DNA from: an uncultured Bacteroidota bacterium
GTDB lineage: Bacteria > CLD3 > SB21 > JBBIRG01
Length of the DNA: 64,000 bases
Assembly: GCA_964410965.1 (NCBI GenBank)
Contig: CAYPIY010000006.1
Coordinates: forward strand, 135,222-199,221
Direction: 5' to 3'
Below, one piece after another: positions 51,101 through 64,000 of the stretch. A program made the position numbers and the translations under genes. Under the pieces are notes generated by a model that saw nothing but the letters and a program-made list of their open reading frames with translations, was not told where the DNA came from and made no database searches. How positions within the stretch are numbered: the stretch's first letter is position 1; every line of letters starts with the position of its first letter.

Positions 51101-51354
51101 TCCGGCTTGTGATCGTACATCGACGTGATGGGTTCGTAAATTTCCTCGGCGATTTTTCCGACAAGGATTGCCGTTCGTTTGGGACCGGAACCGTGAATGA
51201 CGGACGTCTGGTCTTTCCGGTCATGGTAATGAATGTCGAAATGTTCGGTACGGATGGTGTACCACTGAAGTTCCGGATGCGCCCACGATTCGGGCTGAGC
51301 GTAAATTGGAAATGCGGTCAGTAATAACAGAAAAATAAAAAGGATAGGTTTCAT
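48139..51354 (-). CDS. Large secreted protein: N-terminal HExxH (peptidase-MA-like) metallopeptidase domain + TolB-like PD40 beta-propeller + C-terminal beta-barrel-like domain
   Basis: Signal peptide MKPILFIFLLLLTAFPIYAQ. Zinc motif VVTHEFTHMVS. Multiple PD40-like repeats (SPDGRHIAVLS, SWSPDGRWLMYS, SFSHDGRSIV). C-terminal ~350 aa show an alternating aromatic/Gly-rich pattern. Confidence 0.6.
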   Translation of the reverse strand: MKPILFIFLLLLTAFPIYAQPESWAHPELQWYTIRTEHFDIHYHDRKDQTSVIHGSGPKRTAILVGKIAEEIYEPITSMYDHKPERIHFIIRDTDDYSNGGAYYYDNKVEIWASSMDFELRGTHNWLRNVVTHEFTHMVSLQSMMKFSRKVPAFYLQYIGYEKERRKDVLRGFPNVIASYPFAGTILPIWFAEGVAQYQQKSLDYEFWDSHRDMILRSRILSGEMLTISQISTFGKNSIGNESSYNHGYAFVSYLASKYGERVLHDICRNSQTVTNSFERAFRKAVGRSVDAEYREWLQQIRSVYENKTETIRRNLSEGKTLYAEGTGNFFPAVSPDGRHIAVLSNRGYDYLSQTSLYIIDRSTNREIKRIKKVDGSASWSPDGRWLMYSKNLHDNPHNSQVNDIYIYDLPDDKEHRITRTLRAASPSFSHDGRSIVTVVNDDGTNNLFIVGNLPESLNDINKNFNDSLCIRAGLELSRLTYFKNGEQIYKPVVHPSSKKVLFDISQHDGRDIAELDIESKQISYLICSLRDNRSPVYDQDGQWIYFSSDRTGIFNIYRYNPLSKITELLTNVTGGAFYPSVNAGQIHYTLYSDQLFRINVIDSVHAINPGLSDYRVFNPNYKTPVDDRSDSTLVSTYYPKRWPLTEKSYDDRNPGEPDNALNYKTTFLDFMFMPVLRWDYGKPKPGIYLYSGDVLSKSSFFAGAFVNYPDFERDLFGIFEYGGFGPTLYLEVYNVTRGKTFRDNADPSNDNEPGGVKYESVQKNIFELREVDIGTDFSMFAPRDTRLNFAHSEYFVKISGKEFIGDSWNRITKSGGIKYFFGNDFSLQWKFNNVPHGVDFEINPRKGRKWLTKYSYNMDNLVSGFAFNPSNGTLETLFKKGYHHRIETTWNEYLPVPFTQNHTLEIETQAGIIPTKVDSFYNFFGGGLIGLRGYSFYSIEGSRLALVKTTYRFPVWRNIDRKLLMLYLDKIYGGLYFGAGNAWSGKTSWKQINRFRKDVGFEVRMEFFSFYVYPTRLTFDAVYGLNRFSSEGGIITKEQNGLLVKTPQIVRNGKEWRFYLTVLFGFTLFD

Positions 51355-51415
51355 ATTCAATCCTGAGTTAATGAATGGTATCAATCGTTATATGAAACCT
51401 CCTAGCAGGGTGTGT

Positions 51416-51958
51416 TTACGGGCATTTTTTCAGAAGCTGAATAAGATCTTCATCAACGGATAATTCAGGTGATTCAATAAATCGGGCAAACTCCTTATCC
51501 TGGTGCAGAAAAATCAGAGTTGGAACGCGCTTGATGTCATAAGCGACGGCTGTTTTTTCGGGATCAATTTTAGTGCGGTCGACTCCGCGCAGGAAAAGCC
51601 GTATGTTGGGATTGCGACTGAGATCAAAAATTTTCAGGAAAACCGGAATATGTTCCTGCGTATCGCTGCACCAGGTACCAAGGTAAATCTGGACCGAAAT
51701 ATTTTTAGAAAATGAACGGATAAATTGCAGGGTCGAATCGTGAGGCTGACAAAATTCATAATTTTCTTTGAAAACGGGAAATTCCCGGAATAGTTCTTCC
51801 TGATCGATTAGTCCCACCAGCATGGTTCTTCCGTCGATTGTGACAAGATGGCTTCTCTTCACTTCCTTGACTGTGCAGGAAGATATTAGGAAAACTGAAG
51901 AGGCTGTTAAAAGTATTTTTATTAAAGCGGAATCGCATAAATATTTCATCATATTCAA
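51416..51958 (-). CDS. Thioredoxin-fold lipoprotein with monothiol CxxT motif (TlpA/ResA-like fold)
   Basis: Lipobox (FLISSC). The WCSDT motif sits in place of the WCxxC active site. Confidence 0.45.
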   Translation of the reverse strand: MNMMKYLCDSALIKILLTASSVFLISSCTVKEVKRSHLVTIDGRTMLVGLIDQEELFREFPVFKENYEFCQPHDSTLQFIRSFSKNISVQIYLGTWCSDTQEHIPVFLKIFDLSRNPNIRLFLRGVDRTKIDPEKTAVAYDIKRVPTLIFLHQDKEFARFIESPELSVDEDLIQLLKKCP

Positions 51959-52016
51959 TCTGGTTATTTTGAATCTGTGAATCTGTGATTATAGTTTGAA
52001 ATATATCATATTATAA

Positions 52017-52778
52017 TTATTTATTCTTTTTTTCAACCATTTTTACCACCCAGATGCTGGCTTCCCAGAGTATGATGATTGGCATGGCGACTACGGTCAT
52101 AGTTATAATGTCCGTTGTCGGCGTAACAACCGCGGATATTGCCAGTGACGCAATGACTGCATGCCGCCAGTATTTGCGCATAAAGACCGACGATAGCACT
52201 CCGATCTTACTGAGAAAAAAGCTAACGACCGGCAGTTCAAACGTGAGTCCGCTGATGAACATGAATCCGCTGACAAATCCGAGATAGGAATCCAAATCAA
52301 TCATGTTTTCTACGGTGATACCCAGATCGGGATCGATCGAACCCATGGTTAAGAGGAAATTCAGGGAAATGGGAATGATGATCAGGAAAGCAAAAGCGGC
52401 ACCGGCAAGAAAGAACAGAATTGCGATTAAAATGGTTGGGACTGCGTATTTTTTCTCGTTTCTTTTCAATGCCGGCGCTATAAAACGCCATATCTGGAAA
52501 AAGATCACAGGCAGGCTCAGGATAATTCCGCCGATAAGCCCGATCTGGATTTTGACCATCATCAGCCCCTGCACCTGCGTGATGACCGGACGCATCATCT
52601 CGATAGGCGCCTTGATATTTGGAATGATCATCGGCGGATACAAGAGCCATTTGATGATTTCATTGCTGAACGTAAAAGTGACGATCATACAGAGAAGAAC
52701 GCTCAGCAGTGATTTGATCAGCCTGCTTCGCAGTTCATCCAGATGATCCAGGAATGTCATGGATTTATCGTCGGGCAT
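52017..52778 (-). CDS. tatC: Twin-arginine translocase subunit TatC
   Basis: N-terminal (MT)FLDHLDELRSRL block. Six TM helices. 253 aa. Confidence 0.85.
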   Translation of the reverse strand: MPDDKSMTFLDHLDELRSRLIKSLLSVLLCMIVTFTFSNEIIKWLLYPPMIIPNIKAPIEMMRPVITQVQGLMMVKIQIGLIGGIILSLPVIFFQIWRFIAPALKRNEKKYAVPTILIAILFFLAGAAFAFLIIIPISLNFLLTMGSIDPDLGITVENMIDLDSYLGFVSGFMFISGLTFELPVVSFFLSKIGVLSSVFMRKYWRHAVIASLAISAVVTPTTDIITMTVVAMPIIILWEASIWVVKMVEKKNK

Positions 52779-52817
52779 TATCCGGCTTTGCCGTTAGTTG
52801 CGGTTATGACGGATCGC

Positions 52818-53249
52818 CTAAAATAAATTTTCATATTGTTTCGGATCCTCGCTGATTTTCACATGCGTGTCCCAGTAGGAATTCTGGTTCTTCCGGATTT
52901 TCTTTTTCAGAAGGTCAATGCCGAACAGGCGGGAAAAAATTCCGATAAAACTGAAAAAAGAATAGAACATCAGTCCCAGGATCAACTTGGATATGAAAAA
53001 CCCGAGAATGACGCCGATGACGGCGAGCGGATAATAGAACCAGCGAACCGCAGAGCAGAAAATAAATGATAAGACGGCGATAATTAACCCGGCGGCAGGG
53101 ATGTAATACCAGAATGCCTGATCCTTGTACCAAAAGAACCAGCCCACGAGCAGAGTCAGGATAAACAATGCGATCCCGAATTTTCGGATCATCCGGTCCG
53201 TCGAATTGATTTCTTGGATTTCTCTCTGAATGTCTTTTATGAAACTCAT
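52818..53249 (-). CDS. Small two/three-TM membrane protein, SxtJ-like (carbamoyltransferase-associated)
   Basis: 143 aa. N-terminal amphipathic segment, then hydrophobic helices (FGIALFILTLLVGWFFW, GLIIAVLSFIFC, AVIGVILGFFISKLILGLMFYSF). Lies immediately downstream of a NodU/CmcH carbamoyltransferase. Assignment to the SxtJ family is an inference. Confidence 0.4.
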   Translation of the reverse strand: MSFIKDIQREIQEINSTDRMIRKFGIALFILTLLVGWFFWYKDQAFWYYIPAAGLIIAVLSFIFCSAVRWFYYPLAVIGVILGFFISKLILGLMFYSFFSFIGIFSRLFGIDLLKKKIRKNQNSYWDTHVKISEDPKQYENLF

Positions 53250-53261
53250 TTTTTGTTTTCC

Positions 53262-55079
53262 TTAATCAAGTTCAAATTCTTTCATCCATTCTTTATTATC
53301 TTCGATGCTGGGTTGTTCGGTTTTATCCAGCACATAATCGCCCAGTACCAAATAATCGATATGGGTGCGCATGAAACATCGGTAGGCGTCTTCCGGTGTG
53401 CAAACGATCGGTTCACCGCGGACATTAAAAGATGTATTGACAATGACCGGACATCCCGTTTTTTCATAGAACCGGTGAATCACTTCATAATACGGTCCGC
53501 TGATATCTTTATGAACAGTCTGGATACGCGCGGAATAATCAACGTGGGTGATGGCCGGAATCGTTGAGCGCGGAATGTTCAGTTTGTCAATTCCGAAGAG
53601 TTTTTCCTGTTCGGGCGTCATCGGGATTTTTTTATCGGCTTTCACGTCGGCGACGAGGAGCATGTATTTGCTGTTGTAATTCATGTCGAAATAATCGTGC
53701 ATATGTTCCCGCAGAACGCTGGGCGCAAACGGCCGGAACGATTCGCGGAATTTGATCTTAAGGTTCATGATCGACTGCATTTTCACCGAACGGGCGTCGC
53801 CGATGATGCTCCGGGCTCCGAGCGCACGCGGTCCGAATTCCATGCGTCCCTGGAACCAACCGATTACTTTTTCCTGTGTCATGTATTCGGCGATAGCGTC
53901 GATCATTTTATCATGCGGCATTTTCCTGTAAGGGATCTGATGCTTATGGAGGAAAGCTTCAATGTCCTGGTCGCTGAATTCAGGGCCCAGATAGGAACCC
54001 AGCTGCGAATCATCGCTGTTAACAACACGTTCTTTGCCGAGATAATGATGCCATGCCACTAAAGCGGCTCCCAGCGCACTTCCCGCGTCGCCGGCGGCAG
54101 GCTGTATCCATAAATCGTCAAAGATTTTTTCTCTAAGTAATTTCCCGTTAGCTACGCAATTCAGTGCGACGCCGCCGCCCATGCACAGTTTAGTCATGCC
54201 TGTTTCCTTACGGATGTGACGAGCCATACGGAGCACGACTTCTTCGGTGACGTCCTGAACGGAGCGCGCAAGATCCATTTCCCGCTGGGTCAGCCAGGTT
54301 TCCGGTTCACGGGGCGGTCCGCCGAATAATTTATGGAATTTTTCATTGGTCATCGTGAGTCCGGCCGCGTAATTGAAATAGTCCATGTTCAGCCGGAACG
54401 ATCCGTCCTCCTTGAGATCCATCAGATGATCGTAAATCAGTTTGACATATTTGGGTTCGCCGTATGGCGCCAGTCCCATCACTTTATATTCGCCGGAGTT
54501 GACTTTAAATCCGGTATAATACGTGAATGCGGAATACAGCAGACCCAGGGAATGCGGAAAATGCAGTTCCTTGAATATTTTGACATGGTTTCCTTTTCCA
54601 ACGCCGTAACTGGTCGTAGTCCATTCGCCGACGCCGTCAATGGTCAGAAATGCCGCTTCCGGAAACGGAGACTGAAAAAAAGCGGCGGCAGCGTGCGATT
54701 CATGATGTTCCGGATACAGGATTTTTCCTTTGAATTCTTTCAGTTCATTATGAATCAGTTCGGACATCCAAAGCTTACTTTTGATCCAGAGCGGCATGGC
54801 CTTGATGAATGAGTTGATGCCGATGGGAGCGTATGTGAAGTAGGTCCTCAGCAGACGCTCAAATTTAGTTATGGGCTTTTCATAAAAGGCGACATAATCC
54901 AGTTCTTTCTCCGTGATGCCGGCCTGTTTCAGGCAATAATAAACGGCAAGCTTGGGGAACCTGTCATCATGTTTCTTTCTGGAAAAGCGTTCCTCTTGAG
55001 CCGCGGCGATGATCTTTCCGTCACGGATGAGTGCGGCCGCCGAGTCATGATAGAACGCTGATATACCGAGTATGGTCAT
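53262..55079 (-). CDS. Carbamoyltransferase, NodU/CmcH family (Kae1/YgjD-like N-domain + carbamoyltransferase C-domain)
   Basis: MTILGISAFYHDSAAALIRDGKIIAAAQEERFSRKKHD… N-terminal block. 605 aa. Confidence 0.8.
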   Translation of the reverse strand: MTILGISAFYHDSAAALIRDGKIIAAAQEERFSRKKHDDRFPKLAVYYCLKQAGITEKELDYVAFYEKPITKFERLLRTYFTYAPIGINSFIKAMPLWIKSKLWMSELIHNELKEFKGKILYPEHHESHAAAAFFQSPFPEAAFLTIDGVGEWTTTSYGVGKGNHVKIFKELHFPHSLGLLYSAFTYYTGFKVNSGEYKVMGLAPYGEPKYVKLIYDHLMDLKEDGSFRLNMDYFNYAAGLTMTNEKFHKLFGGPPREPETWLTQREMDLARSVQDVTEEVVLRMARHIRKETGMTKLCMGGGVALNCVANGKLLREKIFDDLWIQPAAGDAGSALGAALVAWHHYLGKERVVNSDDSQLGSYLGPEFSDQDIEAFLHKHQIPYRKMPHDKMIDAIAEYMTQEKVIGWFQGRMEFGPRALGARSIIGDARSVKMQSIMNLKIKFRESFRPFAPSVLREHMHDYFDMNYNSKYMLLVADVKADKKIPMTPEQEKLFGIDKLNIPRSTIPAITHVDYSARIQTVHKDISGPYYEVIHRFYEKTGCPVIVNTSFNVRGEPIVCTPEDAYRCFMRTHIDYLVLGDYVLDKTEQPSIEDNKEWMKEFELD

Positions 55080-55182
55080 AAAACAATTCTCCGGATTTTA
55101 TTTATTATGTTATTCATTTTTTCATTTATACAATATAACACATAAAGCGTCATTTCATTTCAGCTATTCATGTATGCCAGTA

Positions 55183-56769
55183 CTATTCATTGAACAGGGT
55201 TCGGCTGAAATAATATTCAATATTCAAAAGGCCGTTAAGCAGTGATTTGTCTTTTTTTAAGTTTCGATGGTTTTTGACATATGCGTAACCGGTTTCAAAT
55301 TTAACATGAAGATCATGCCAATTATGAAAAAGCGCACTGGCATAGATGCCGGCCGTTTCTTCGACCCGTCCGGAAGGAAACGGCAGTTTCACGAATGTTG
55401 GATCCTCAAAATCATGTGACAGCAGGGTGCGTTCGCCCTGTCGTTTGTAATATACCTCTGCGCTGAAAATCCATTTCGGAAGAGGAAAATACTTCCATGA
55501 TAAGCGGATATGATCCATATCATTGGCCGGTGCACCGAGGCCTTTTCCCTGATAGGTATAACTCTGCCACGGCCGTTTTTGTTTGACGTTGTAAGTGTAA
55601 CTGCCGATCCGTTCGTACATAACCGACATTTGTGTGTTATTCAGCAACAAGTCGTTGCCGAGGATACGGTAGGTCATACCGAGCCGATCGGGTGATGTTT
55701 TCCGGTTGGGCGGAGGACTGCCGGCGCCGTCGAGAATAAAATCATCGACCAATATTTGTCCTGAAAAAAGAAAACGCCTGTATGGCACTGAAAAATCAAA
55801 CGCTATATTTTCGTTGGCTTCTTTTTTCTGATTTAGCTGCACTTCGGCGAAAATTGAAAAAGGGTTCAGATAAGCAAGATCAACGGTTTGATTGACACCA
55901 CCGTAAACAATGGATTCCGATAAACCGAAATGCATGCCGTTGTTCAGCTGTATATCGAGCCGATGCGCGGATACATAACGTTTGGCGGTGTTAAAATCCT
56001 CCAGCATGGCAAACAAGGACCGGAACTGGATATTGTTGGTGAGAATGCCCAGTTGGAATTTGTCATAGGTATATGCCTCGGGAGAAATGATTAGGCTCTG
56101 TCCGGCGACCGGCGACCATTCCTCAGCAAACCGTCCTATCGCGCAGTAAAAGGCGTGGTAATCAAAACGGCCGTATCCGTCCTCAAGGCGTGCACCAAGA
56201 CGGCCGGCATTCCGTCCCGTGTAGGTCTTGTCGCGAAGCAATGAGCGGTCTAAGCGCCCGCGTAGTGCGGATGTGAAATGCAGGGTGGAAAAATGAAGCG
56301 CCGGATCGATACGATAATCATCGTATAAACGGTTATTCTCAGTAAATAAAGTATTCGTCAGTTCTGTTCCGGCGTCGGCAAGGACGGAATGGCCTGATTG
56401 CCGCAAAAGTCTGATTTCTTTGCTGAATTCATCCCGAAGGAAATTCACCCATAACAATTCGTTCTTCGATAAAGTTGTATTGCTGTCAAGGCTCATCAGC
56501 GCTGCGGCGACTTCTCCGCGATTATAAGGACGGACGCTGATGTTCAGTTTGGATAGATATCCGCGGGTTTGCAGCAGGGTAATGTATTCGTATGAAGGAT
56601 GTCCCAGATCCAGAAACGGCGTTGCCACATCAAAAGCAGGGTAATGCAGGATTTCCTGTGCTGTCAGACGATGACTTCCAAAGAATTGAATGACCGTAAA
56701 AAAAATCGATATGACAAGAATTAAAATATTTTTCAAATTATTGTTCCGAATCCGTATGACTTTTTTCAT
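55183..56769 (-). CDS. Putative outer-membrane beta-barrel protein (possibly Wzi/capsule-assembly-like) in glycan cluster
   Basis: Signal peptide. ~530 aa. Abundant alternating aromatic strands. Start overlaps the upstream wecA end. Family assignment is tentative. Confidence 0.4.
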   Translation of the reverse strand: MKKVIRIRNNNLKNILILVISIFFTVIQFFGSHRLTAQEILHYPAFDVATPFLDLGHPSYEYITLLQTRGYLSKLNISVRPYNRGEVAAALMSLDSNTTLSKNELLWVNFLRDEFSKEIRLLRQSGHSVLADAGTELTNTLFTENNRLYDDYRIDPALHFSTLHFTSALRGRLDRSLLRDKTYTGRNAGRLGARLEDGYGRFDYHAFYCAIGRFAEEWSPVAGQSLIISPEAYTYDKFQLGILTNNIQFRSLFAMLEDFNTAKRYVSAHRLDIQLNNGMHFGLSESIVYGGVNQTVDLAYLNPFSIFAEVQLNQKKEANENIAFDFSVPYRRFLFSGQILVDDFILDGAGSPPPNRKTSPDRLGMTYRILGNDLLLNNTQMSVMYERIGSYTYNVKQKRPWQSYTYQGKGLGAPANDMDHIRLSWKYFPLPKWIFSAEVYYKRQGERTLLSHDFEDPTFVKLPFPSGRVEETAGIYASALFHNWHDLHVKFETGYAYVKNHRNLKKDKSLLNGLLNIEYYFSRTLFNE

Positions 56770-57835
56770 GGGTTTCGTGTTCTTCATGAAGATCCGCGCT
56801 GTGTTTGAAGGATTGAACCAATTTGATGAAAAGAAATACAAAAAGTAGTACAAAAAACAGAACGCCGATAATAAACGAACTGGACTGACTGAACGCCGAA
56901 AAAAGGAACGCCATTGTACCGAAAAACAGACAAATCACATACAGAAAAATGACGGTTTTCGGATGGCTGTATCCGTATGAAAGTAGAATATGATGGATAT
57001 GCTCGCGGTCGGCAATGAAAATGTGTTTCTTGGCTTTGACGCGGCGGATAATGGCCAGCGCGATATCTGTCAGCGGGTAACCCAGAGCGATCAGGGGAGT
57101 GATAATCGCGAAACTGACGGCTGATTTCTGCGAGCTGATCAGTCCCATCGAGGCGATGACAAGCCCAATGAACATGCTTCCCGTGTCGCCCATGAAAATT
57201 TTGGCTGGATAAAAATTATGCCGCAGAAAACCGAGTATCGCTCCCGTCAAACCCATGCTCAGCAGGGCGACATAGGATTTGTCAAGGTAGATTCCGATGA
57301 GAAATATGGTCATCGCGACGATCATGCCAACGCCCGAAGCCAGACCGTCCAATCCGTCGACAAGATTGATAGCGTTGATAATTCCGACGACCCAGAAAAT
57401 GGTCAGCGGATAATTAAATAAGCCCAGTTCAATGTTGCTCCCGAATGGATTGGCGATCGCTTCGATCTGATATCCGAATAAAATCAGAATGATCCCCGCG
57501 GCAATCTGAAGCAGCAGTTTCCATACGGCCCTGATATTGTAAATGTCGTCAATGATTCCGACAATGACGATAAAAGTAGAAGCGATAAAAAGCCCGAGTA
57601 ACTGCAATTCGCGGTCAACAAATAATTTCGGATAAAAAATAAAAGATACAGCCAGTGATAAAATAAAACCGAGATAAATCGTGATACCGCCCATATTAGG
57701 AATGGCGCGCTTATGGATTTTTCTTGCGTCGGGTTTGTCAACGAATCCCTTCTCGATCAGCCGTTTGCGCAGAACCGGCGTCAGGAAAAAGGAGATGGAC
57801 AATCCGGTCAGAAATATGATAATATAGGCAATCAA
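56738..57835 (-). CDS. wecA: Undecaprenyl-phosphate GlcNAc-1-phosphate transferase (MraY/WecA family)
   Basis: Polytopic. DDxxN motif (DDIYNIRA), NAINLVDGLDGLA and MGDTGSMFIG motifs. Confidence 0.8.
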   Translation of the reverse strand: MIAYIIIFLTGLSISFFLTPVLRKRLIEKGFVDKPDARKIHKRAIPNMGGITIYLGFILSLAVSFIFYPKLFVDRELQLLGLFIASTFIVIVGIIDDIYNIRAVWKLLLQIAAGIILILFGYQIEAIANPFGSNIELGLFNYPLTIFWVVGIINAINLVDGLDGLASGVGMIVAMTIFLIGIYLDKSYVALLSMGLTGAILGFLRHNFYPAKIFMGDTGSMFIGLVIASMGLISSQKSAVSFAIITPLIALGYPLTDIALAIIRRVKAKKHIFIADREHIHHILLSYGYSHPKTVIFLYVICLFFGTMAFLFSAFSQSSSFIIGVLFFVLLFVFLFIKLVQSFKHSADLHEEHETHEKSHTDSEQ

Positions 57836-57850
57836 TATATCCTCATGGCA

Positions 57851-58639
57851 TTACGCGGAATATTTATAATCTAATTTCAATTTAAGCCATTTCTTTCCCA
57901 AAACCAAGAAAGTAAATTTTGGCAGGGCAAGCATCCGGGGGGCGCGCAACGGCTGCTGAAGCAAACGGAAGAACCATTCTAAATGAAGCGCCAGCATCCA
58001 TTTCGGCGGACGCGGTACGGTGCCGGTAATCGCGTCAAAACTGCCGCCCACGCCCATCAGCAAAGGAATTGCGAACTGATGTTCGTCGCAGTATTTTTTT
58101 ATTCTTTGTATCAGATTCTCTTGGATCAGCGCGCCCATGCCTACGAAAACCATTTGCGGTTTAAAGGTTTTAAGTTCGTTCATTAATTCGTCATAATCCT
58201 TATCCAATGAAAAATATCCATTTCGAATGCCGGCAATGCAGAGTCCGGGAAAATCATCCTGCAATTGCGTCTTCGCTTTCTCTATGACATTTTGTTTTGA
58301 TCCGATCAGGTAGACTTTATATCCGGTTTCAGCTGCAATTTGCATGAATTTTATCATCAGATCGCATCCGGGAATGGGATGGTATTTCTTTTTGCCGAAT
58401 CGTCGCATGGCCCACGCGATTCCGAAAGCATCGGGATATACAAGGTCCGCTTCGAGGATATGTTTCGCCAGTGCGGGTTCTTTCCTCGCGCGGCATACCT
58501 TGATCGGATTCAGTGCCATCAGATGCCGGCTCTGCCGGTTGTCCGACAGCCAGCCTTTCACGGTTTCAACAATCTCCGTGGCGCTGTTCCGGCTCGTCGG
58601 GAAACCCAGGATATCGATGGTTTTATCGGATGCGATCAT
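57851..58639 (-). CDS. WecB/TagA/CpsF-family glycosyltransferase (GT26)
   Basis: 262 aa. N-terminal DILGFP block and C-terminal PEWFFRLLQQP block, both characteristic of the family. Confidence 0.75.
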   Translation of the reverse strand: MIASDKTIDILGFPTSRNSATEIVETVKGWLSDNRQSRHLMALNPIKVCRARKEPALAKHILEADLVYPDAFGIAWAMRRFGKKKYHPIPGCDLMIKFMQIAAETGYKVYLIGSKQNVIEKAKTQLQDDFPGLCIAGIRNGYFSLDKDYDELMNELKTFKPQMVFVGMGALIQENLIQRIKKYCDEHQFAIPLLMGVGGSFDAITGTVPRPPKWMLALHLEWFFRLLQQPLRAPRMLALPKFTFLVLGKKWLKLKLDYKYSA

Positions 58640-58642
58640 GGT

Positions 58643-60364
58643 TTAAATTTTATTCCAGTCGGTTTCAATCAGGTAATTGCCGATGGCCAGGGCGTGAATC
58701 CGGCTTTGTTCGTAAGAACGGATCGCTTCCTGCGGCGTTCGTATGATCGGCTCTTCGTGCATATTGAAACTGGTGTTGACCAGAACGGAAAGGCCGGTCA
58801 GCTTCTTATATTCGTTCAGGATATGATAATAAGACGGATTGATGTCTTCGGTAATGATCTGCGGGCGCGCGGTTCCGTCGACATGCGTGATCGCCGGCGC
58901 GAGTTCCTCGCATTTTGAAGTCACATCATACGTAATGGTCATGTATTCGGAGGCAAAGGCGTGATCCGGGTCATAATTTTTCAGGTACTCGTGCGCGTCC
59001 TCCTTCAGAATGACAGGCGCGAACGGCATGAATTCGGTCCGGCGCAACTGTTCGTTCAGCCAGCTGTTGACCGACCTATCTCCGCAGTGGTACATGATCG
59101 TGCGGTTTCCGAGCGCACGCGGGCCGTATTCCATCTTACCGTTGAACCGGGCGACGATTTTTTTGTCTTTGAGTAATTGCGCTATCGCCGGTTCGATCCG
59201 GTCGTATCGTTTGGGCTGAAATCCGGACTGACGGATCGCGTCTTCGATTTCCTGGTCCGAATAACCGCTTCCGAAATATACGTCATGAATGCGCGTGGGA
59301 GTAAAACCGTTCATCTTCTGACGGTACACCTCAAAAGCCGCGCCTACGGCTAATCCACCGTCGCCCATATTCGGGAAAACGAAAACATCCGCAGCGTTCG
59401 TTGCTTTCCAGATTTCCTGGTTCAGCTTGACGTTGGAGAACACGCCTCCGCTGAGAGCAATATTTTTTGTGCTGGTTCTTTTCATAGCATCGACCACATA
59501 ACGGCTTACGATATCTTCGCAGTGTTTCTGTATCCCGGCTGCGATGTCTTCTTTGGAAAACGGTTTCAGCAGGGTCTCGAGCTTGAGCATTTCCGGATGC
59601 AGCCACCCCCCGTGATTGACAAATGACATTTTCTGGGCATCATAGGAAAGTCGTTTCGCGAATATCGCCTGTGTTTGTTCCGGATTGCCGAAAGCGGCAA
59701 GTCCGGTGACTTTTCCCTCATGGCGAAGCGCGGTGAAACCGAGCAGGTGAGTGACGTAACAGTAGTAAAATCCGGGCGAATGAAATGCAGGGACGGAATG
59801 CAGTAGCTTCATCTGCCCGTTTTTGCAGTCATAAATCCGGGAACAATATCCGTCGCCGCTTCCGTCAAGCGTGATTGAAATACAGTCGTTCCAACCGGAA
59901 GTATAATAGGCACTGGCAGCGTGGCAAAGATGGTGATCCGCGAAGTCGATCGGGGCATCGATGTCTAGCTCTTTCAGCCGGCTTTCGATTTCTGATGTAC
60001 CGCGGAAAAAAGAAGATTCAAACACTTTTCGTGTGGCTTTCGTGCCGATATTCGTTCCCATCAGTAAACCGGTGATCGGTGTACGGCTCAGCCCTGCGAC
60101 AAAAGAACGGAAGAATCCGACGTCACGGTAACCGATATCCAGCGGACGGGCTTTGGTAGCGCTGCTTCCGGCAATAGCAACCTGTTCGATGTTTTTCGGA
60201 AGGATGCCGGCCAGGCGGATGACTTCGGGTATGGATAAATCGGGAAATCCCCAGTACATTTTCTTGCGGTTCAGCCGTTCTTCATTGACAGCCGATACAA
60301 TTTTTCCGTCGATAATGATCGCAGCGCCTGAATCGTGTCCTGTGGAAATGCCAAGAATAATCAT
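58643..60364 (-). CDS. Carbamoyltransferase, NodU/CmcH family (second paralog)
   Basis: MIILGISTGHDSGAAIIIDGKIVSAVNEERLNRKK… 573 aa. Roughly 35-40% identical by eye to the 53262..55079 product. Confidence 0.8.
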   Translation of the reverse strand: MIILGISTGHDSGAAIIIDGKIVSAVNEERLNRKKMYWGFPDLSIPEVIRLAGILPKNIEQVAIAGSSATKARPLDIGYRDVGFFRSFVAGLSRTPITGLLMGTNIGTKATRKVFESSFFRGTSEIESRLKELDIDAPIDFADHHLCHAASAYYTSGWNDCISITLDGSGDGYCSRIYDCKNGQMKLLHSVPAFHSPGFYYCYVTHLLGFTALRHEGKVTGLAAFGNPEQTQAIFAKRLSYDAQKMSFVNHGGWLHPEMLKLETLLKPFSKEDIAAGIQKHCEDIVSRYVVDAMKRTSTKNIALSGGVFSNVKLNQEIWKATNAADVFVFPNMGDGGLAVGAAFEVYRQKMNGFTPTRIHDVYFGSGYSDQEIEDAIRQSGFQPKRYDRIEPAIAQLLKDKKIVARFNGKMEYGPRALGNRTIMYHCGDRSVNSWLNEQLRRTEFMPFAPVILKEDAHEYLKNYDPDHAFASEYMTITYDVTSKCEELAPAITHVDGTARPQIITEDINPSYYHILNEYKKLTGLSVLVNTSFNMHEEPIIRTPQEAIRSYEQSRIHALAIGNYLIETDWNKI

Positions 60365-61545
60365 ACAACTCCTTTATCGTTTGTCATCGTCTTTGGCGTG
60401 TGGGTGATATAGGTCGTCAGTGCCCAATACATCCAGCATTGCGACCAACGCATATAGGAAATGCGGTTCGTGTACAGCGGATGCTTCTGAAAATAAAAAT
60501 ACCCTTTCGGGGACTGCATATTTTTGATAGTCCAGTTTACCAGTTTTTCAAGCCTTTCCGTTGAATCGGGATGATATCCGCGGAGTTTGGTAAGCGACAC
60601 AATGCCCTGCGCCGCGCTGTGAATGTCCACAGGATAGGCGGCCTGATGATAATATTTCGGTGTTCCGTCCGGAAGGAAAAAATGATTCACAAAAAATTCA
60701 TAACCTTTCCGGAGCCGGGGTTCGTAGGTTTGTTCTCCGGTTGATTCGATGAACCGGTGCAGGGATTCAAGAATGAAGCCGGTGTGAAAACTGTCGATCC
60801 ACTGCTGGATACCGGTCTCCGCGTAATGCCAGGAGCCGTCGCCACGCTGGTATTGCATGACATAATCAATGGAGCGTTTTGAGTAGTCCAAAAGGATTTC
60901 TTCTTTCGTTACGGAATAAACCCTTGCCAGCAAAGCGGCGCCGAGGATGTTGGCGTTGTGAACTTTCAACTGGTCGATCGGCGTGTAGCTGAAGCACAGG
61001 GTATTTTTTTCCTTTGAGTGATGAAGATCTTCTATAATGAAATCGCAGCTGCTTCGCGCGGTTTCAAGATACAGATCTCTCCGGGTGGCTTCGTAGGCGT
61101 CTAAAAAGCCGTTCCCGATATAACTTGTATTTACTATCGTCGGGGTAAATTTCGGAACGTAAAACACACGGCTTTGCCAGTCAAAATTATAACCCCAGCA
61201 CGCACCGGAATAACCGGGCGTTTTTATATTAATCAATAAGTTAGCTAAAAATTCCAGCAATTTCAAATAGTTTTTATCTTCGTTGTTCCTGTAGATTTTC
61301 GAGAATGAAGATAACATCAGGCCAAGCCCTTTGGGATTATGCCCTTTACGGACGAAAAGCAAGGGACGGAAATTGACCGGGCTTTTCTTCATAAACTGGA
61401 TGAACGCGATTCTCAGAAAACGGCTTTTTTTGGACAGTGACCGGAGAATCGGACTGTTGAGCGCGTCATAACAGTCATAGCCCATGAATTGCTGATCGAT
61501 GATATATTTCTCGAGAGATTTGAATGATTGCCGGACAGGAGTCAT
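60361..61545 (-). CDS. Hypothetical protein, possibly (alpha/alpha)6-barrel polysaccharide-modifying enzyme (C5-epimerase/lyase-like)
   Basis: 394 aa. Helix-rich, W/Y-rich. Translationally coupled (4-nt overlaps) to carbamoyltransferase and acetyltransferase genes. No firm motif. Confidence 0.35.
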   Translation of the reverse strand: MTPVRQSFKSLEKYIIDQQFMGYDCYDALNSPILRSLSKKSRFLRIAFIQFMKKSPVNFRPLLFVRKGHNPKGLGLMLSSFSKIYRNNEDKNYLKLLEFLANLLINIKTPGYSGACWGYNFDWQSRVFYVPKFTPTIVNTSYIGNGFLDAYEATRRDLYLETARSSCDFIIEDLHHSKEKNTLCFSYTPIDQLKVHNANILGAALLARVYSVTKEEILLDYSKRSIDYVMQYQRGDGSWHYAETGIQQWIDSFHTGFILESLHRFIESTGEQTYEPRLRKGYEFFVNHFFLPDGTPKYYHQAAYPVDIHSAAQGIVSLTKLRGYHPDSTERLEKLVNWTIKNMQSPKGYFYFQKHPLYTNRISYMRWSQCWMYWALTTYITHTPKTMTNDKGVV

Positions 61546-62201
61546 ACGTCGTTTTTCTTCGGGATGATTTTTTGAGCAGGGACGCCGACCGCGATTACGT
61601 CAGTTCCGATAGATTTCAGCAGCACCGCGTTTGCGCCGACTTCGGAGCGGTCACCGATCTCGATGTTGCCGAGAATCTTGGCGCCGGCCCATAATTTCAC
61701 GTCGTTGCCGATTTTCGGCGCGCCGCTGCCGGTCGTAACGCCCTGGCAGACGATACAGCGTTCCCCGAGTTCCGTGTTCTTGCCGATCACGATACCCGAT
61801 CCGTGATAGATCATCAGTCCGTGCCCTATTTTCGCGAAAGGAGAAAGATCCGAATCGGTAAAAAATTTGGAAAAACGGTGGATAAAATCCGATAGGATCC
61901 GCAATCGGTGCAGGAGAAAAAATCTGGAAACCCGGTAAAGGAAGAGCGCCTGCGTGCCGTTGTCGCCGATCATAGTCTTGAGAAAAAACATGAAAAAAGC
62001 GAGCCGACGTTTCCGGAAACGTTTCAGGTTTTTCTGGGAATCGAAGATATAGAGTAAGTCATATTTAAAATCGAATACGGATAACGGCAGTTTAACGGCT
62101 ATAAACAGAATAATCAGAAAAAGAAAATAACCGGTCAGGAATAAAATTACCGGAAGCGAATAAATGACGATCAAATCCCAAATGCCAATGTGTAAATCCA
62201 T
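61542..62201 (-). CDS. Left-handed beta-helix (hexapeptide-repeat) acetyltransferase, CysE/WbbJ-like, with N-terminal TM
   Basis: Hexapeptide repeats IGKNTELGERCIVCQGVTTGSG…IGNDVKLWAGAKILGNIEIGDRSEVGANAVL. Confidence 0.75.
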   Translation of the reverse strand: MDLHIGIWDLIVIYSLPVILFLTGYFLFLIILFIAVKLPLSVFDFKYDLLYIFDSQKNLKRFRKRRLAFFMFFLKTMIGDNGTQALFLYRVSRFFLLHRLRILSDFIHRFSKFFTDSDLSPFAKIGHGLMIYHGSGIVIGKNTELGERCIVCQGVTTGSGAPKIGNDVKLWAGAKILGNIEIGDRSEVGANAVLLKSIGTDVIAVGVPAQKIIPKKNDV

Positions 62202-62246
62202 TGTATTAATCGCTTTTTATTTATCTGTGAATCTTTGGCAATTTAT

Positions 62247-64000
62247 TTACGAAATACCTACCGGCAATCCCTTGGTCAATGACCCCAGTATCGCGAACAC
62301 GGTTTTGGAAGTCATGACTAATTCATCGAACGGAATAGGGGAGGGTTGTCCCTTCAGAATGGCGTCCGTGAAGGCAAGTATGGAATCGGCATACCCCTTG
62401 TCCTGTCTGGAACCGCCGAATGTCCGTGATTTCCCGTTTCGTGACAGCCGGCAGTTTTTAAAATCGTCTACCACGGCGACGGACTGTTCGCCGAAAATTT
62501 CAATCCGTTCTTTCGGAAATGTTTTGTCGCCGATGGCAATGTAACTGATGGTTCCGGTCGAACCGTCGCTGAATTTGACGATGACCTGAAGATTGTCGCG
62601 GTTGGTTACGTCATGCGCGTTATAGGAAATCGTTTGCGCGTAAACATTGACCGGCATGGCGTTCAGGAGGTGTATCATCAGATCGATAAAATGACACACT
62701 TCGCCGATAATACGCCCGCCGCCCTGCACGGGATCCTGTATCCAGTGATTTTTCGGTATGTTCCCGGCATTGATACGGTACGTAATCATCAGAGGCGAGA
62801 TTTTTCTGGAATAGAATTTTTTCACTTCACGGATGACCGGCGAAAAACGGCGGTTGTAGCCGACCATCAGAGTCGTAGGCTGGTTCTGATATATCCTGAC
62901 GATCTCATCCAACTCTTCCGTAGACATCGCGAGAGGTTTTTCGACGAAAACCGGCTTCGATGCTTTCAGTGCTTCCATGACCATCGGGGCATGCAGATGA
63001 TGCCGTGTTGTTACGAACAGTGCGTTGATTTCCGGGTGTCGGATAATTTCAAAGTTATCTGTCGTCGAAAATTGAAATTTGAATTTGTCCGCGACATTCT
63101 TGGCGGTAACACCTTTGGATGTTGAAACACCCGTCAACCGGACATTTTGCATTTTTTTAAAATGAGGCAGAAGCATGTTTTGCGCGAAATTCCCGGCTCC
63201 GATAAAACCGATGGATAACGACTCAAATGATTTTACAGGCTCAGCAGACGATAGTGAAAGGTTTTTTCCATTTTTTACTTCCAGATTTCGGTGGCGGTAA
63301 TCCAGCAATACGCCGACAATCGTTTCCGCTGACGGGTTTTTTCCCGTAATCATGTCATACGCCTGTTTGGCGTCCTCAATTTTGAACCGATGCGTCGTAA
63401 CGGATTTCAGATTTATTTTTTTCTGCGCGGCGAGGCCTAAAAAGGCCTGCATATTGCGGTTCTCCGTCCAGCGGACGTATCCGTACGGGTAATCAATGCC
63501 GAATTCTTCATAGTTAGAGTCATACCGGCCGGGCCCGTAAGATCGTGCGAACCGGACATCGATTTCTTTTTCATAAAACGGGCTTCTCGGTATGTCAGCG
63601 GGAACGGCTCCTTCGATGATGAGTTTGCCTTTATGTCGCAGAATATCGCCAGACAGAATAACTGGCGCAGTGCTGGACGTCGCTGCCGTAATAATTGAGC
63701 TGTCAACGCCGTAACCGCGCGTGATCGTTTCGATATCCGTTACGGTATCGCCGCAAATGATCATGGCGTGATCCGCACCGGCGTTACGGGCATTTTCGCA
63801 GGCCGCTTCATTCAGGTCAAGTCCTATCACCCGGCAGCCGTTCGCTTTCAGTATCTGCACGGACAATATGCCTAAAAGGCCGAGACCGATCACGGCAACG
63901 GTTTCCCCGACTAATGTTTCCGCCTGGCGGATGCCCTGTAGCGCAATGGCGCCCAGCGTGGCGTAACAGGCCTCGTCAAAATCAATGCCCTCCGGGATGC
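62247..64000 (-). CDS. Bi-domain oxidoreductase (MDR alcohol-dehydrogenase-like N-part + Gfo/Idh/MocA C-part); N-terminus runs off the window end
   Basis: MDR Rossmann GLGLLG…, later Gfo/Idh/MocA Rossmann SIGFIGAGNFAQN and the EKPLA motif. No stop upstream before position 64000. Confidence 0.75.
   Translation of the reverse strand, partial: IPEGIDFDEACYATLGAIALQGIRQAETLVGETVAVIGLGLLGILSVQILKANGCRVIGLDLNEAACENARNAGADHAMIICGDTVTDIETITRGYGVDSSIITAATSSTAPVILSGDILRHKGKLIIEGAVPADIPRSPFYEKEIDVRFARSYGPGRYDSNYEEFGIDYPYGYVRWTENRNMQAFLGLAAQKKINLKSVTTHRFKIEDAKQAYDMITGKNPSAETIVGVLLDYRHRNLEVKNGKNLSLSSAEPVKSFESLSIGFIGAGNFAQNMLLPHFKKMQNVRLTGVSTSKGVTAKNVADKFKFQFSTTDNFEIIRHPEINALFVTTRHHLHAPMVMEALKASKPVFVEKPLAMSTEELDEIVRIYQNQPTTLMVGYNRRFSPVIREVKKFYSRKISPLMITYRINAGNIPKNHWIQDPVQGGGRIIGEVCHFIDLMIHLLNAMPVNVYAQTISYNAHDVTNRDNLQVIVKFSDGSTGTISYIAIGDKTFPKERIEIFGEQSVAVVDDFKNCRLSRNGKSRTFGGSRQDKGYADSILAFTDAILKGQPSPIPFDELVMTSKTVFAILGSLTKGLPVGIS

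Follow-up and report, generated by a model that had tools for sequence, protein, structure and literature searches.

The sequence analysed here is a window of 64,000 nucleotides from an uncultured Bacteroidota bacterium, and the subject of this account is its final stretch, positions 52818–64000, where two genes for carbamoyltransferase-like proteins, termed CT1 and CT2, lie among genes for the assembly of a surface glycan. All of the long open reading frames in this stretch are found on the minus strand and either abut or overlap, giving an array without a break (Table 1). The stretch is the downstream 11 kb of a tightly packed, one-strand locus of about 20 kb that is devoted to a lipid-linked surface glycan, which is probably capsule- or O-antigen-like. 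The overall reading favoured here, to which a probability of roughly 0.6 can be attached, is that O-acetyl and O-carbamoyl groups are most likely both present on the glycan, and that the two carbamoyltransferases work in different ways.

The remainder of the locus is found on a public contig, L001 (20.6 kb), which agrees with the window across a 12,459-bp overlap with 0 mismatches and adds eight kb of the same operon-like array past the window end. The window itself contains the C-terminal 584 of the 723 residues of a bi-domain oxidoreductase, the gene for which is complete in L001. Taken together, the locus displays features of a Wzy-type system, including a WecA-like initiating enzyme, a WecG-like transferase, two family 4 glycosyltransferases (GT4), one family 2 glycosyltransferase (GT2), a Wzy-like protein and a Wzi-like protein. 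The 456-residue Wzy-like protein has no Pfam match itself, and its orthologues in relatives match Wzy_C weakly. The gene order, with the dispersed DUF5989 and GDSL genes included, is retained in three further contigs (L002, L087 and L088) with proteins that are 55–80% identical, and hence the locus belongs to the conserved core of a clade of uncultured bacteria and is not a one-off assembly. In L088 (16344–19838) three extra genes are found between the Wzi-like gene and CT1, two of which encode GDSL/SGNH proteins and the third a 446-aa protein with no Pfam match, an arrangement that suggests a lineage-specific SGNH expansion.

The initial annotation of this DNA had described a glycan-biosynthesis locus, a description that is borne out by the WecA, WecG, GT4, GT2, Wzy-like and Wzi-like components. 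The genes that it listed, namely wecA, a WecB/TagA transferase, an acetyltransferase, a bi-domain oxidoreductase, a putative outer-membrane barrel, two carbamoyltransferases and a small membrane protein, are all present on the minus strand where it had placed them. The barrel can now be named as a Wzi-like protein: its N-terminus resembles a signal peptide, its match covers positions 13–382 of the 392 in the Caps_assemb_Wzi profile, and the gene is also retained in L002, L087 and L088. The same list overlooked the 394-aa gene that lies between CT2 and the acetyltransferase. The cluster does not stop at position 64000, since the array continues upstream in L001, where the DUF5989 and GDSL genes are located. 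The two 4-nt overlaps that it pointed out are present in the sequence as ATGA, one joining the 394-aa gene to CT2 (60361/60364) and the other joining the acetyltransferase to the 394-aa gene (61542/61545). The remaining junctions have spacers of 3–103 nt, with an overlap of about 50 nt between the WecA-like gene and the called start of the Wzi-like gene.

The WecA-like transferase matches the NCBIfam ECA_wecA model at 1e-47, which is below the equivalog cut-off, and the WecG-type transferase matches TarA at 2e-42 and wecG_tagA_cpsF with 141 bits against a cut-off of 69. The acetyltransferase is similar to EpsC (8.5e-37) and cysE (6e-35), in both cases under the equivalog cut-offs. Its N-terminal region of about 70 residues contains one or two hydrophobic helices. 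These helices indicate a membrane-anchored left-handed beta-helix acyltransferase, and thus the glycan is probably O-acetylated in addition to being carbamoylated.

Table 1. Genes of the glycan locus and its downstream neighbour, in window coordinates or, for genes past the window end, in order of distance from position 64000 on contig L001.
Feature	Position	Strand	Evidence or remark
TatC	52017–52778	same strand as glycan genes	directly 3' of the SxtJ-like gene
Polytopic membrane protein, 143 aa, predicted divergent SxtJ family	52818–53249	minus	12 nt 3' of the CT1 stop
CT1, predicted O-carbamoyltransferase, 605 aa, SxtI-like subfamily	53262–55079	minus	Pfam Carbam_trans_N 4.3e-104, Carbam_trans_C 1.1e-71
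Wzi-like outer-membrane capsule-assembly protein, 534 aa from called start	55183–56787	minus	Pfam Caps_assemb_Wzi 5.4e-10
WecA/MraY-family polyprenyl-phosphate N-acetylhexosamine (HexNAc)-1-phosphate transferase (initiating enzyme)	56738–57835	minus	Pfam Glycos_transf_4 1.7e-43
WecG/TagA/CpsF-family glycosyltransferase (second sugar onto lipid-linked HexNAc)	57851–58639	minus	Pfam Glyco_tran_WecG 1.5e-50
CT2, predicted O-carbamoyltransferase, 573 aa, glycan-cluster subfamily	58643–60364	minus	Pfam Carbam_trans_C 7.5e-58, Carbam_trans_N 1.6e-44
(alpha/alpha)6-barrel protein, 394 aa	60361–61545	minus	AlphaFold2 fold; in Pfam only weak GH88 and C5-epimerase matches
CysE/EpsC-like hexapeptide O-acetyltransferase, 219 aa	61542–62201	minus	Pfam Hexapep 1.5e-13
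Bi-domain medium-chain dehydrogenase/reductase (MDR; ADH_zinc_N) and Gfo/Idh/MocA oxidoreductase	62247–64000, on to window-equivalent 64418	minus	GFO_IDH_MocA 1.5e-22, ADH_zinc_N 3.5e-13
Rest of the oxidoreductase (723 aa whole)	beyond 64000, 1		L001
AsnB-like amidotransferase, 633 aa	beyond 64000, 2		L001
DUF5989 protein, 55 aa	beyond 64000, 3		L001; Pfam 1.7e-19
Short ArnC/AglJ-like GT2, 240 aa	beyond 64000, 4		L001
GT4	beyond 64000, 5		L001
GDSL/SGNH protein, 412 aa, N-terminal transmembrane segment	beyond 64000, 6 (L001 2530–3768)		L001; Pfam 3.5e-11
Polytopic Wzy-like protein, 456 aa	beyond 64000, 7		L001
Another GT4	beyond 64000, 8		L001

Two carbamoyltransferases of different subfamilies

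The family placement of CT1 and CT2 was made by comparison of bit scores with model cut-offs. With the Pfam models Carbam_trans_N and Carbam_trans_C, which have cut-offs of 24 and 27 bits, CT1 scores 349 and 240 bits and CT2 153 and 195 bits. Among proteins of solved structure, the best matches of CT1 are 7xb6, NovN, GdmN and TobZ (248–309 bits), whilst CT2 matches NovN with 236 bits and TobZ with 202 bits; a literature search on structure 7XB6 returned no papers. In the YrdC-like domain, both proteins contain the motifs GPRALGxRS and NTSFN. The metal site of TobZ is presumed here to be formed by a His-His-Asp-Asp set, H114, H118, D137 and D338 in native numbering. In CT1, the equivalent residues H125, H129, D148 and D331 do not vary among 15 homologues. 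In CT2, residues H144, H148 and D167 align with H120, H124 and D143 of the TobZ chain (native numbering plus 6), and D335 aligns with the Asp of the TobZ 'SDIG' segment. CT1 and CT2 are therefore predicted to be O-carbamoyltransferases of the TobZ/NovN/GdmN type with an intact metal site, in keeping with the initial assignment to the NodU/CmcH family, since both domains score far above their cut-offs.

Orthology with NodU itself was considered and rejected, as the NCBIfam model NF041651 gave partial matches of 139 bits (CT1) and 129 bits (CT2) against an equivalog cut-off of 1000. In tblastn comparisons the two proteins are 24–30% identical to nodU over half of the protein. Matches to the TsaD, hypF and gcp_kae1 models amount to 15–26 bits against cut-offs of 25–466, and the one score that passes its threshold, that of CT2 with the HypF_C_2 subdomain (32.6 bits against 27), is ascribed to the shared Kae1-like fold. 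Hence the two proteins do not group with HypF or Kae1 enzymes, a possibility to which the initial annotation had drawn attention, for the scores on that side are 15–33 bits as compared with 153–349 bits for the carbamoyltransferase models.

CT1 and CT2 share 31% identity and, from this comparison, appear to be deep paralogues that belong to different subfamilies rather than the products of a recent duplication. The earlier description took two carbamoyltransferases in one polysaccharide locus to imply double or alternative carbamoylation, which may be so, but the two should not be regarded as equivalent decorators because their subfamilies have different partners. For CT2 this was seen in a metagenome scan with an alignment of CT2 orthologues, from which the 80 best loci were taken. 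The 80 best relatives are 38–53% identical to CT2, and their neighbours include GT2 at 24 of the 80 loci, AsnB-like proteins at 18 and GT4 at about 15, in comparison with one SxtJ and two DUF5989 proteins. CT2 is an ordinary, stand-alone kind of carbamoyltransferase that is found in glycan clusters. The order of 394-aa gene, CT2 and WecG is retained in two of the loci (L089 and L091).

The 394-aa protein belongs to a family with more than 6400 homologues that are about 50% identical across phyla. It forms part of a conserved trio, together with the bi-domain MDR and GFO oxidoreductase (about 710–750 aa) and a WecG/TagA-type transferase. This trio is also found without any carbamoyltransferase in glycan loci of Marinimicrobia and Planctomycetota (L003, L004 and L005), which indicates that CT2 and the acetyltransferase were inserted into an older module in the present clade. 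The AlphaFold2 model of the 394-aa protein (pLDDT confidence score 94.7) is an (alpha/alpha)6 barrel, with the best fold matches being cellobiose/glucose 2-epimerases of the AGE superfamily, GH76 and GH88 (TM-scores 0.6–0.65, 10–16% identity). As epimerases, GH76 and GH88 fit about equally well, neither 'C5-epimerase' nor 'GH88 hydrolase' was adopted as a name. Source names for the family are inconsistent, with both 'delta-aminolevulinic acid dehydratase' and 'rhamnogalacturonyl hydrolase YesR' in use; the former was rejected as it has no Pfam or fold support.

The cassette associated with CT1

CT1 is a much more strongly conserved protein. Its best 120 database matches are all at least 69% identical, and it shares 60–80% identity with homologues from at least 15 named bacterial groups, which include Nitrospirota, Ignavibacteriota, Calditrichaceae, KSB1, Omnitrophota, Parcubacteria, Saccharibacteria and Gemmatimonadota as well as Acidobacteriota, Planctomycetota, Verrucomicrobia, Cyanobacteria, Bdellovibrionota, Proteobacteria and others. 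The best 80 genome loci, with CT1-type proteins 60–70% identical to CT1, were annotated with hidden Markov models; the genome of the window is not among them. Within 2.5 kb of the CT1-type gene, which is the distance taken as nearby, SxtJ is found at 73 of the 80 loci, DUF5989 at 60 and both at 58, the usual order being carbamoyltransferase, SxtJ, DUF5989. The immediate neighbours of this trio (n=137) come from 160 Pfam families in all, GDSL being the commonest (17) and GT2 the second commonest (12). The carbamoyltransferase, SxtJ and DUF5989 genes form a self-contained cassette, of which GDSL is a frequent fourth member. In the locus described here all four families are present although they are not contiguous, DUF5989 being located some 13 kb upstream of CT1 and GDSL some 15 kb upstream. 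The cassette genes are likewise interleaved with glycan genes in L087 and L088.

In two genomes CT1 and SxtJ are fused in a single open reading frame. In a metagenome-assembled genome (MAG) of Pyrinomonadaceae (L074, 10001–12220) residues 1–590 correspond to CT1 and residues 612–739 to SxtJ, and a similar fusion is found in an Aegiribacteria MAG (L046, 1888–3912); in both, DUF5989 follows directly. Such fusions point to a cytoplasmic N-terminus for SxtJ and to a CT1 that works whilst attached to the membrane, and they imply a role for SxtJ in retaining CT1 at the cytoplasmic face of the membrane. CT1-type proteins also possess a C-terminal tail in which W598, E601, L604 and D605 are invariant, with KEFELD as the consensus end.

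The assignment of the 143-aa membrane protein to SxtJ, as first suggested in the initial annotation, holds for the family and not for the single sequence. By itself the protein remains under the Pfam threshold for SxtJ (PF19588; E=0.021, 16.0 bits against a cut-off of 24.4), with profile positions 3–98 of 99 covered. It has only seven close homologues, five of which match SxtJ at E≤1 with a best value of 0.0033. A profile constructed from these seven, however, retrieves 3929 cluster representatives (E≤1e-3), with matches that span the full length (125–198 aa, and nearly all 130–150 aa), and 46 of 50 sampled representatives match Pfam SxtJ at E≤1e-3 (best 2e-16). In L087, the orthologue at the syntenic position carries a recorded Pfam SxtJ match (PF19588). 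On this profile evidence the 143-aa protein appears to be a divergent, fast-evolving SxtJ. Its AlphaFold2 model (pLDDT 92.7) is all-helical, with helices at residues 2–12, 18–41, 49–63, 65–108 and 136–142, and a fold search of the PDB gave no match below E=2.7. The SxtJ family has a conserved (S/T)YW motif and a basic tail that ends E(R/K)QF. This tail was considered as a second shuttle motif of the kind described below for DUF5989 and rejected, given that its Tyr is not conserved and that it is basic and probably cytoplasmic.

The DUF5989 microprotein has an amphipathic helix at its N-terminus, which is followed by an RKK cluster, one transmembrane helix and an uncharged tail of 13 residues. 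The last residues of this tail are A-P-F-(I/V)-Y-(T/A/S)-(L/I/V)-F-COOH in 62 of 62 sequences, including the copy in this genome (...APFIYTLF). The pattern FxYxxF at the extreme C-terminus has been described as the acyl-shuttle motif of the DltX microprotein and of bacterial MBOATs, such as PatA with FIYANF, where the Tyr of the motif is acylated and then gives the acyl group to a Ser of a membrane-anchored SGNH protein, DltD or PatB (PMC12148441). As a control, 17,106 mechanically called open reading frames from 162 loci were surveyed, of which 71 end in F.Y..F and 65 of these are DUF5989. The six others include only two long proteins, both of which are Pfam MBOATs and act as positive controls: L024 5732–7108 (minus strand), which ends SFLYFQF, and L167 7370–8860 (plus strand), which ends PFLYFQF. 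A CT1 trio lies within a few kb of one of these genes, and the other is the direct neighbour of a CT2-type gene. A C-terminal F.Y..F is thus close to diagnostic in the open reading frames surveyed. A literature search returned nothing on DUF5989 and nothing that links acyl shuttles to carbamoyltransferases, the acyl-shuttle papers being only on Dlt and Pat, apart from a metabolomics preprint on an unrelated subject.

The GDSL proteins linked to the cassette make up a family of their own and are homologous to the copy in this genome (E down to 3e-38). An N-terminal transmembrane anchor is present in 17 of 18 of them, and the GDS motif is located at residues 90–126. The protein encoded here has such an N-terminal segment, with GDS at residue 99 and a candidate DYLH near the C-terminus. 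A sequence search of the PDB produced only generic GDSL lipases (best E=0.007) and no close solved relative. From the distribution of charge, the DUF5989 tail is inferred to be extracytoplasmic, and the SGNH domain is probably also located there. At the end of the GDSL anchor there is a recurring pattern with a Glu, similar to E-x-x-x-L-R (for example ILELLLRL, FELALRLL and FEIAFRLI), which is found in the L001 copy and in GDSL genes that lie by trios in L019, L043, L054, L056, L065, L069, L073, L074, L080 and L086. A buried acidic residue is unusual in a signal anchor and might mark a protein–protein contact.

Two replicons give further views of the cassette. On pSymB of Sinorhizobium meliloti S35m (NZ_CP065022.1, L169 8376–10833) there is a contiguous set of SxtJ, DUF5989 (...APFIYTLF) and a CT1-type carbamoyltransferase that is 61% identical to CT1 of the window; this stretch, at about 484.3–486.7 kb of the replicon, is unannotated in the table of the plasmid collection. 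The cultured Melioribacter sp. OK-6-Me (L017) is a further carrier of the cassette, and a CT1-type gene is present in Gemmatirosa kalamazoonensis. A megaplasmid of Ralstonia solanacearum (CP052109.1, L170 7989–16417) contains a variant cluster, with a CT1-type carbamoyltransferase (54% identical, and called nolO in some records) and a 68-aa protein that resembles only the last transmembrane segment and tail of SxtJ, but with no DUF5989. The variant also encodes an SGNH/GDSL hydrolase, a second, shorter carbamoyltransferase, an ATP-grasp protein, an MFS transporter and an alpha/beta hydrolase, and it looks more like a small-molecule pathway.

Proposed roles of CT1 and CT2 and the alternatives

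By analogy with TobZ, CT2 would be a cytoplasmic, stand-alone enzyme that consumes ATP and carbamoyl phosphate and proceeds via carbamoyl-AMP. The sugar that it carbamoylates would belong to the lipid-linked repeat unit under assembly or to its nucleotide precursor. The position of its gene between those of the (alpha/alpha)6 protein and the WecG-type transferase, and its coupling to the former, suggest that it acts around the second sugar.

CT1 and the SxtJ-like protein, on the other hand, represent one half of an ancient four-gene cassette that is completed by DUF5989 and the membrane-anchored GDSL/SGNH protein. As a tentative mechanism, CT1 docked on SxtJ would load a carbamoyl group onto the tail Tyr of DUF5989 to form a tyrosyl carbamate, and the SGNH protein would then pass the group from this Tyr to the exported glycan outside the cytoplasm. 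Serine hydrolases can accept carbamoyl groups from aryl carbamates, which are chemically competent donors, and the step from Tyr to Ser is therefore plausible. DUF5989 would thereby act like DltX or the tail of PatA in a carbamoyl relay of the Dlt/Pat kind that operates without an MBOAT, which is possible but is put forward with the odds clearly against it. The wider idea, that carbamoyltransferase, SxtJ, DUF5989 and GDSL generally make up a trans-envelope carbamoylation machine on the Dlt/Pat principle, with sxtIJKL of the saxitoxin clusters included, is speculative and is held with, if anything, greater reserve.

A number of observations weigh against these proposals. With regard to the locus, no Wzx, Wza or Wzc is found in the 20.6 kb of L001, although their genes may lie further upstream, and the presence of carbamoyl groups on the glycan of this organism is itself deduced from genes. 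The trio lies outside glycan loci in most genomes, where the acceptor could be something else; on pSymB of S. meliloti it has a HisKA_3/LuxR two-component pair upstream and a peptide ABC transporter downstream, with no adjacent glycan genes. With regard to the relay, GDSL is next door in only about a quarter of the trio loci, none of the 17 genes that make up the locus encodes an MBOAT or AT3 domain, and charge distribution is the one basis for the topology of DUF5989 and the SGNH domain. The membrane part of SxtJ has no conserved polar or catalytic residue and no conserved His, which suits a scaffold rather than an enzyme. The weakest step is the movement of the carbamoyl group from a cytoplasmic enzyme to a periplasmic Tyr, for which no route is evident, there being neither a carrier arm nor an obvious channel.

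The alternative that survives best, although it is still considered unlikely, is that CT1 and SxtJ, perhaps with DUF5989 and GDSL, constitute an autonomous system with an acceptor of its own, such as a membrane lipid, a peptidoglycan or lipid-A-type molecule or a small molecule, which is merely co-located with the glycan genes and leaves CT2 as the only decorator of the polysaccharide. The maintenance of 60–70% identity in CT1 across at least 15 groups would be unusual for an enzyme that acts on variable glycans, the neighbours of the trio are heterogeneous, the trio stands alone on pSymB, and the same gene set acts on an alkaloid in the saxitoxin clusters. Mere co-location is harder to reconcile with the way in which the genes are interleaved here, where GDSL comes after the Wzy-like gene, DUF5989 lies between GT2 and the AsnB-like gene, and CT1 and SxtJ come after Wzi. 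Four contigs share this interleaved order, even where protein identity is as low as about 55–63%. Moreover, GT2 ranks second among the neighbours of the trio in other genomes.

A further possibility is that SxtJ and DUF5989 form a small flippase or carrier like GtrA or ArnE/ArnF. In that case GT2 would make a polyprenyl-phosphate sugar, CT1 would carbamoylate it in the cytoplasm, and after flipping it would be joined to the glycan on the periplasmic side. The rank of GT2 among the trio's neighbours fits this scheme. The 240-aa GT2, whose gene immediately precedes that of DUF5989, matches best with polyprenyl-phosphate sugar synthases of the AglJ, ArnC and PpgS type, L016 and L034 have close homologues of it (E 1e-60 to 1e-69) at a distance of about 3.5 kb from the trio, and SxtJ is of the size of GtrA and ArnEF-type proteins. 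SxtJ nevertheless resembles GtrA and ArnE/F neither in sequence nor in fold, no periplasmic GT-C transferase is seen, and saxitoxin biosynthesis involves no polyprenyl sugar. As this arrangement would also leave the invariant FxYxxF and the SGNH partner without a role, it is judged improbable.

It is more doubtful still that both carbamoyltransferases are ordinary soluble decorators of the same repeat unit, with SxtJ and DUF5989 as dispensable accessory or regulatory proteins and FxYxxF as a coincidence. The characterised enzymes TobZ, NovN, GdmN and NodU are indeed all soluble and have no membrane partners. CT1-type genes are, however, very tightly linked to SxtJ and DUF5989, natural fusions occur, and the DUF5989 tail pattern is invariant, whereas outside DUF5989 F.Y..F ends only 6 of about 17,000 open reading frames, two of them MBOATs. 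Finally, the idea that CT1 and CT2 are HypF/Kae1/TsaD-type proteins of hydrogenase maturation or tRNA t6A synthesis, or that the locus makes a secondary metabolite, can be set aside almost entirely, since the weak matches to TsaD, HypF_C_2 and Sua5 domains are expected from the shared fold, Carbam_trans_N/_C scores are 153–349 bits against 16–33 for TsaD and HypF, the best solved relatives are all O-carbamoyltransferases, and the surroundings contain no polyketide synthase or non-ribosomal peptide synthetase genes but WecA, WecG, GT4, GT2, Wzy-like and Wzi-like ones.

Genomic setting and comparison with known systems

Downstream of the glycan locus (51416–52778) lie, on the same strand, genes for TatC and for a Thioredoxin_9 lipoprotein, an adjacency that is also seen in L002 and L087. 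TatC is found downstream in three of the four contigs, L088 not showing that part. As the SxtJ stop and the TatC start are separated by 39 nt, TatC may share a transcript with the cluster. A scan of 51000–64000 for promoters and terminators was uninformative, with 25 promoter-like matches against 20.6 expected and 16 terminator-like matches against 16.8 expected. The GC content is 0.46–0.50 in the cluster and 0.41–0.47 elsewhere, which gives no clear signal of transfer. The other genes of the window are those of an ordinary chromosome and include PBP1C, a 2-oxoacid:ferredoxin oxidoreductase, CcmF/NrfE, hybrid kinases, Dpp7 and GlgX.

To our knowledge, only a few examples of surface-glycan O-carbamoylation have been described in bacteria, and the membrane enzymology of the reaction is unexplored. 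In its overall composition the locus resembles Wzy-dependent capsule and O-antigen loci with Wzi, having WecA-type, WecG/TagA, GT4, GT2, Wzy-like and Wzi-like components, but unlike the hypervariable serotype loci it is a conserved core locus of its clade. Precedents for the O-carbamoylation of glycans by members of this enzyme family, encoded in glycan clusters, are provided by NodU/NolO, which act on Nod factor, and by WapO, the latter by description only. WapO (PA5005) is the putative carbamoyltransferase behind the 7-O-carbamoyl heptose in the lipopolysaccharide core of Pseudomonas (PMC8005017).

As with TobZ, NovN and GdmN, both CT1 and CT2 have Kae1-like and YrdC-like domains, the metal site and the GPRALGxRS and NTSFN motifs. 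Those three enzymes, in contrast, are soluble and act on antibiotics, and matches of 190–309 bits mark them as members of the same family rather than as orthologues. CT1-type proteins differ from them further in having a conserved C-terminal tail and obligate membrane partners.

The likeness to the Dlt and PatA systems lies in a membrane microprotein or tail that ends in FxYxxF (FIYTLF in DUF5989 and FIYANF in PatA) and in a membrane-anchored SGNH partner, with CT1 as the cytoplasmic, ATP-dependent enzyme that would activate the donor in a manner analogous to DltA. In contrast to DltABCDX, PatA/PatB and AlgI/J/X, there is no MBOAT and no carrier protein, and the group transferred would be carbamoyl instead of acyl. 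SxtJ is unrelated to MBOATs and does not have a conserved catalytic His, so that the likeness to Dlt and Pat is one of motif and gene context. Should the relay prove true, it would be the first acyl-shuttle system that is independent of MBOATs and would supply a first function for SxtJ, SxtK and SxtL; should it be wrong, what remains is a well-documented and fairly ordinary glycan cluster with two decorating enzymes. The DUF5989 motif, the travelling SGNH genes and the fusions of carbamoyltransferase with SxtJ make the function of the cassette experimentally addressable in cultured carriers such as S. meliloti.

The closest counterpart of the cassette is sxtIJKL of the saxitoxin cluster, in which sxtI, sxtJ, sxtK and sxtL have lengths of 1839, 405, 165 and 1281 nt, with the products of J and K listed as 'unknown' (PMC2679770). 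The two systems agree in a carbamoyltransferase of about 605–612 aa, a polytopic SxtJ of 134–147 aa, a microprotein of 54–55 aa and a GDSL protein of about 412–426 aa, and in Microcoleus (L056, L065 and L073) carbamoyltransferase, SxtJ, DUF5989 and GDSL are contiguous in the same order as sxtI-J-K-L. The equivalence is based on Pfam families, sizes and gene order rather than on the sequences of SxtJ, SxtK and SxtL. Unlike sxtIJKL, the four genes here are spread over about 16 kb of a glycan locus, the SxtJ is too divergent for the Pfam threshold, and the acceptor is likely to be a sugar polymer and not an alkaloid. The locus thus links a glycan pathway to a highly conserved cassette with thousands of representatives that has had no assigned function, and in which sxtJ and sxtK have stood as 'unknown' in the saxitoxin field since the cluster was described. 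Whilst the O-carbamoylation of glycans by this enzyme family was already known, the membership of CT1 and SxtJ in a cassette of the sxtIJKL type, the fusions of CT1 with SxtJ and the acyl-shuttle motif of DUF5989 are new.

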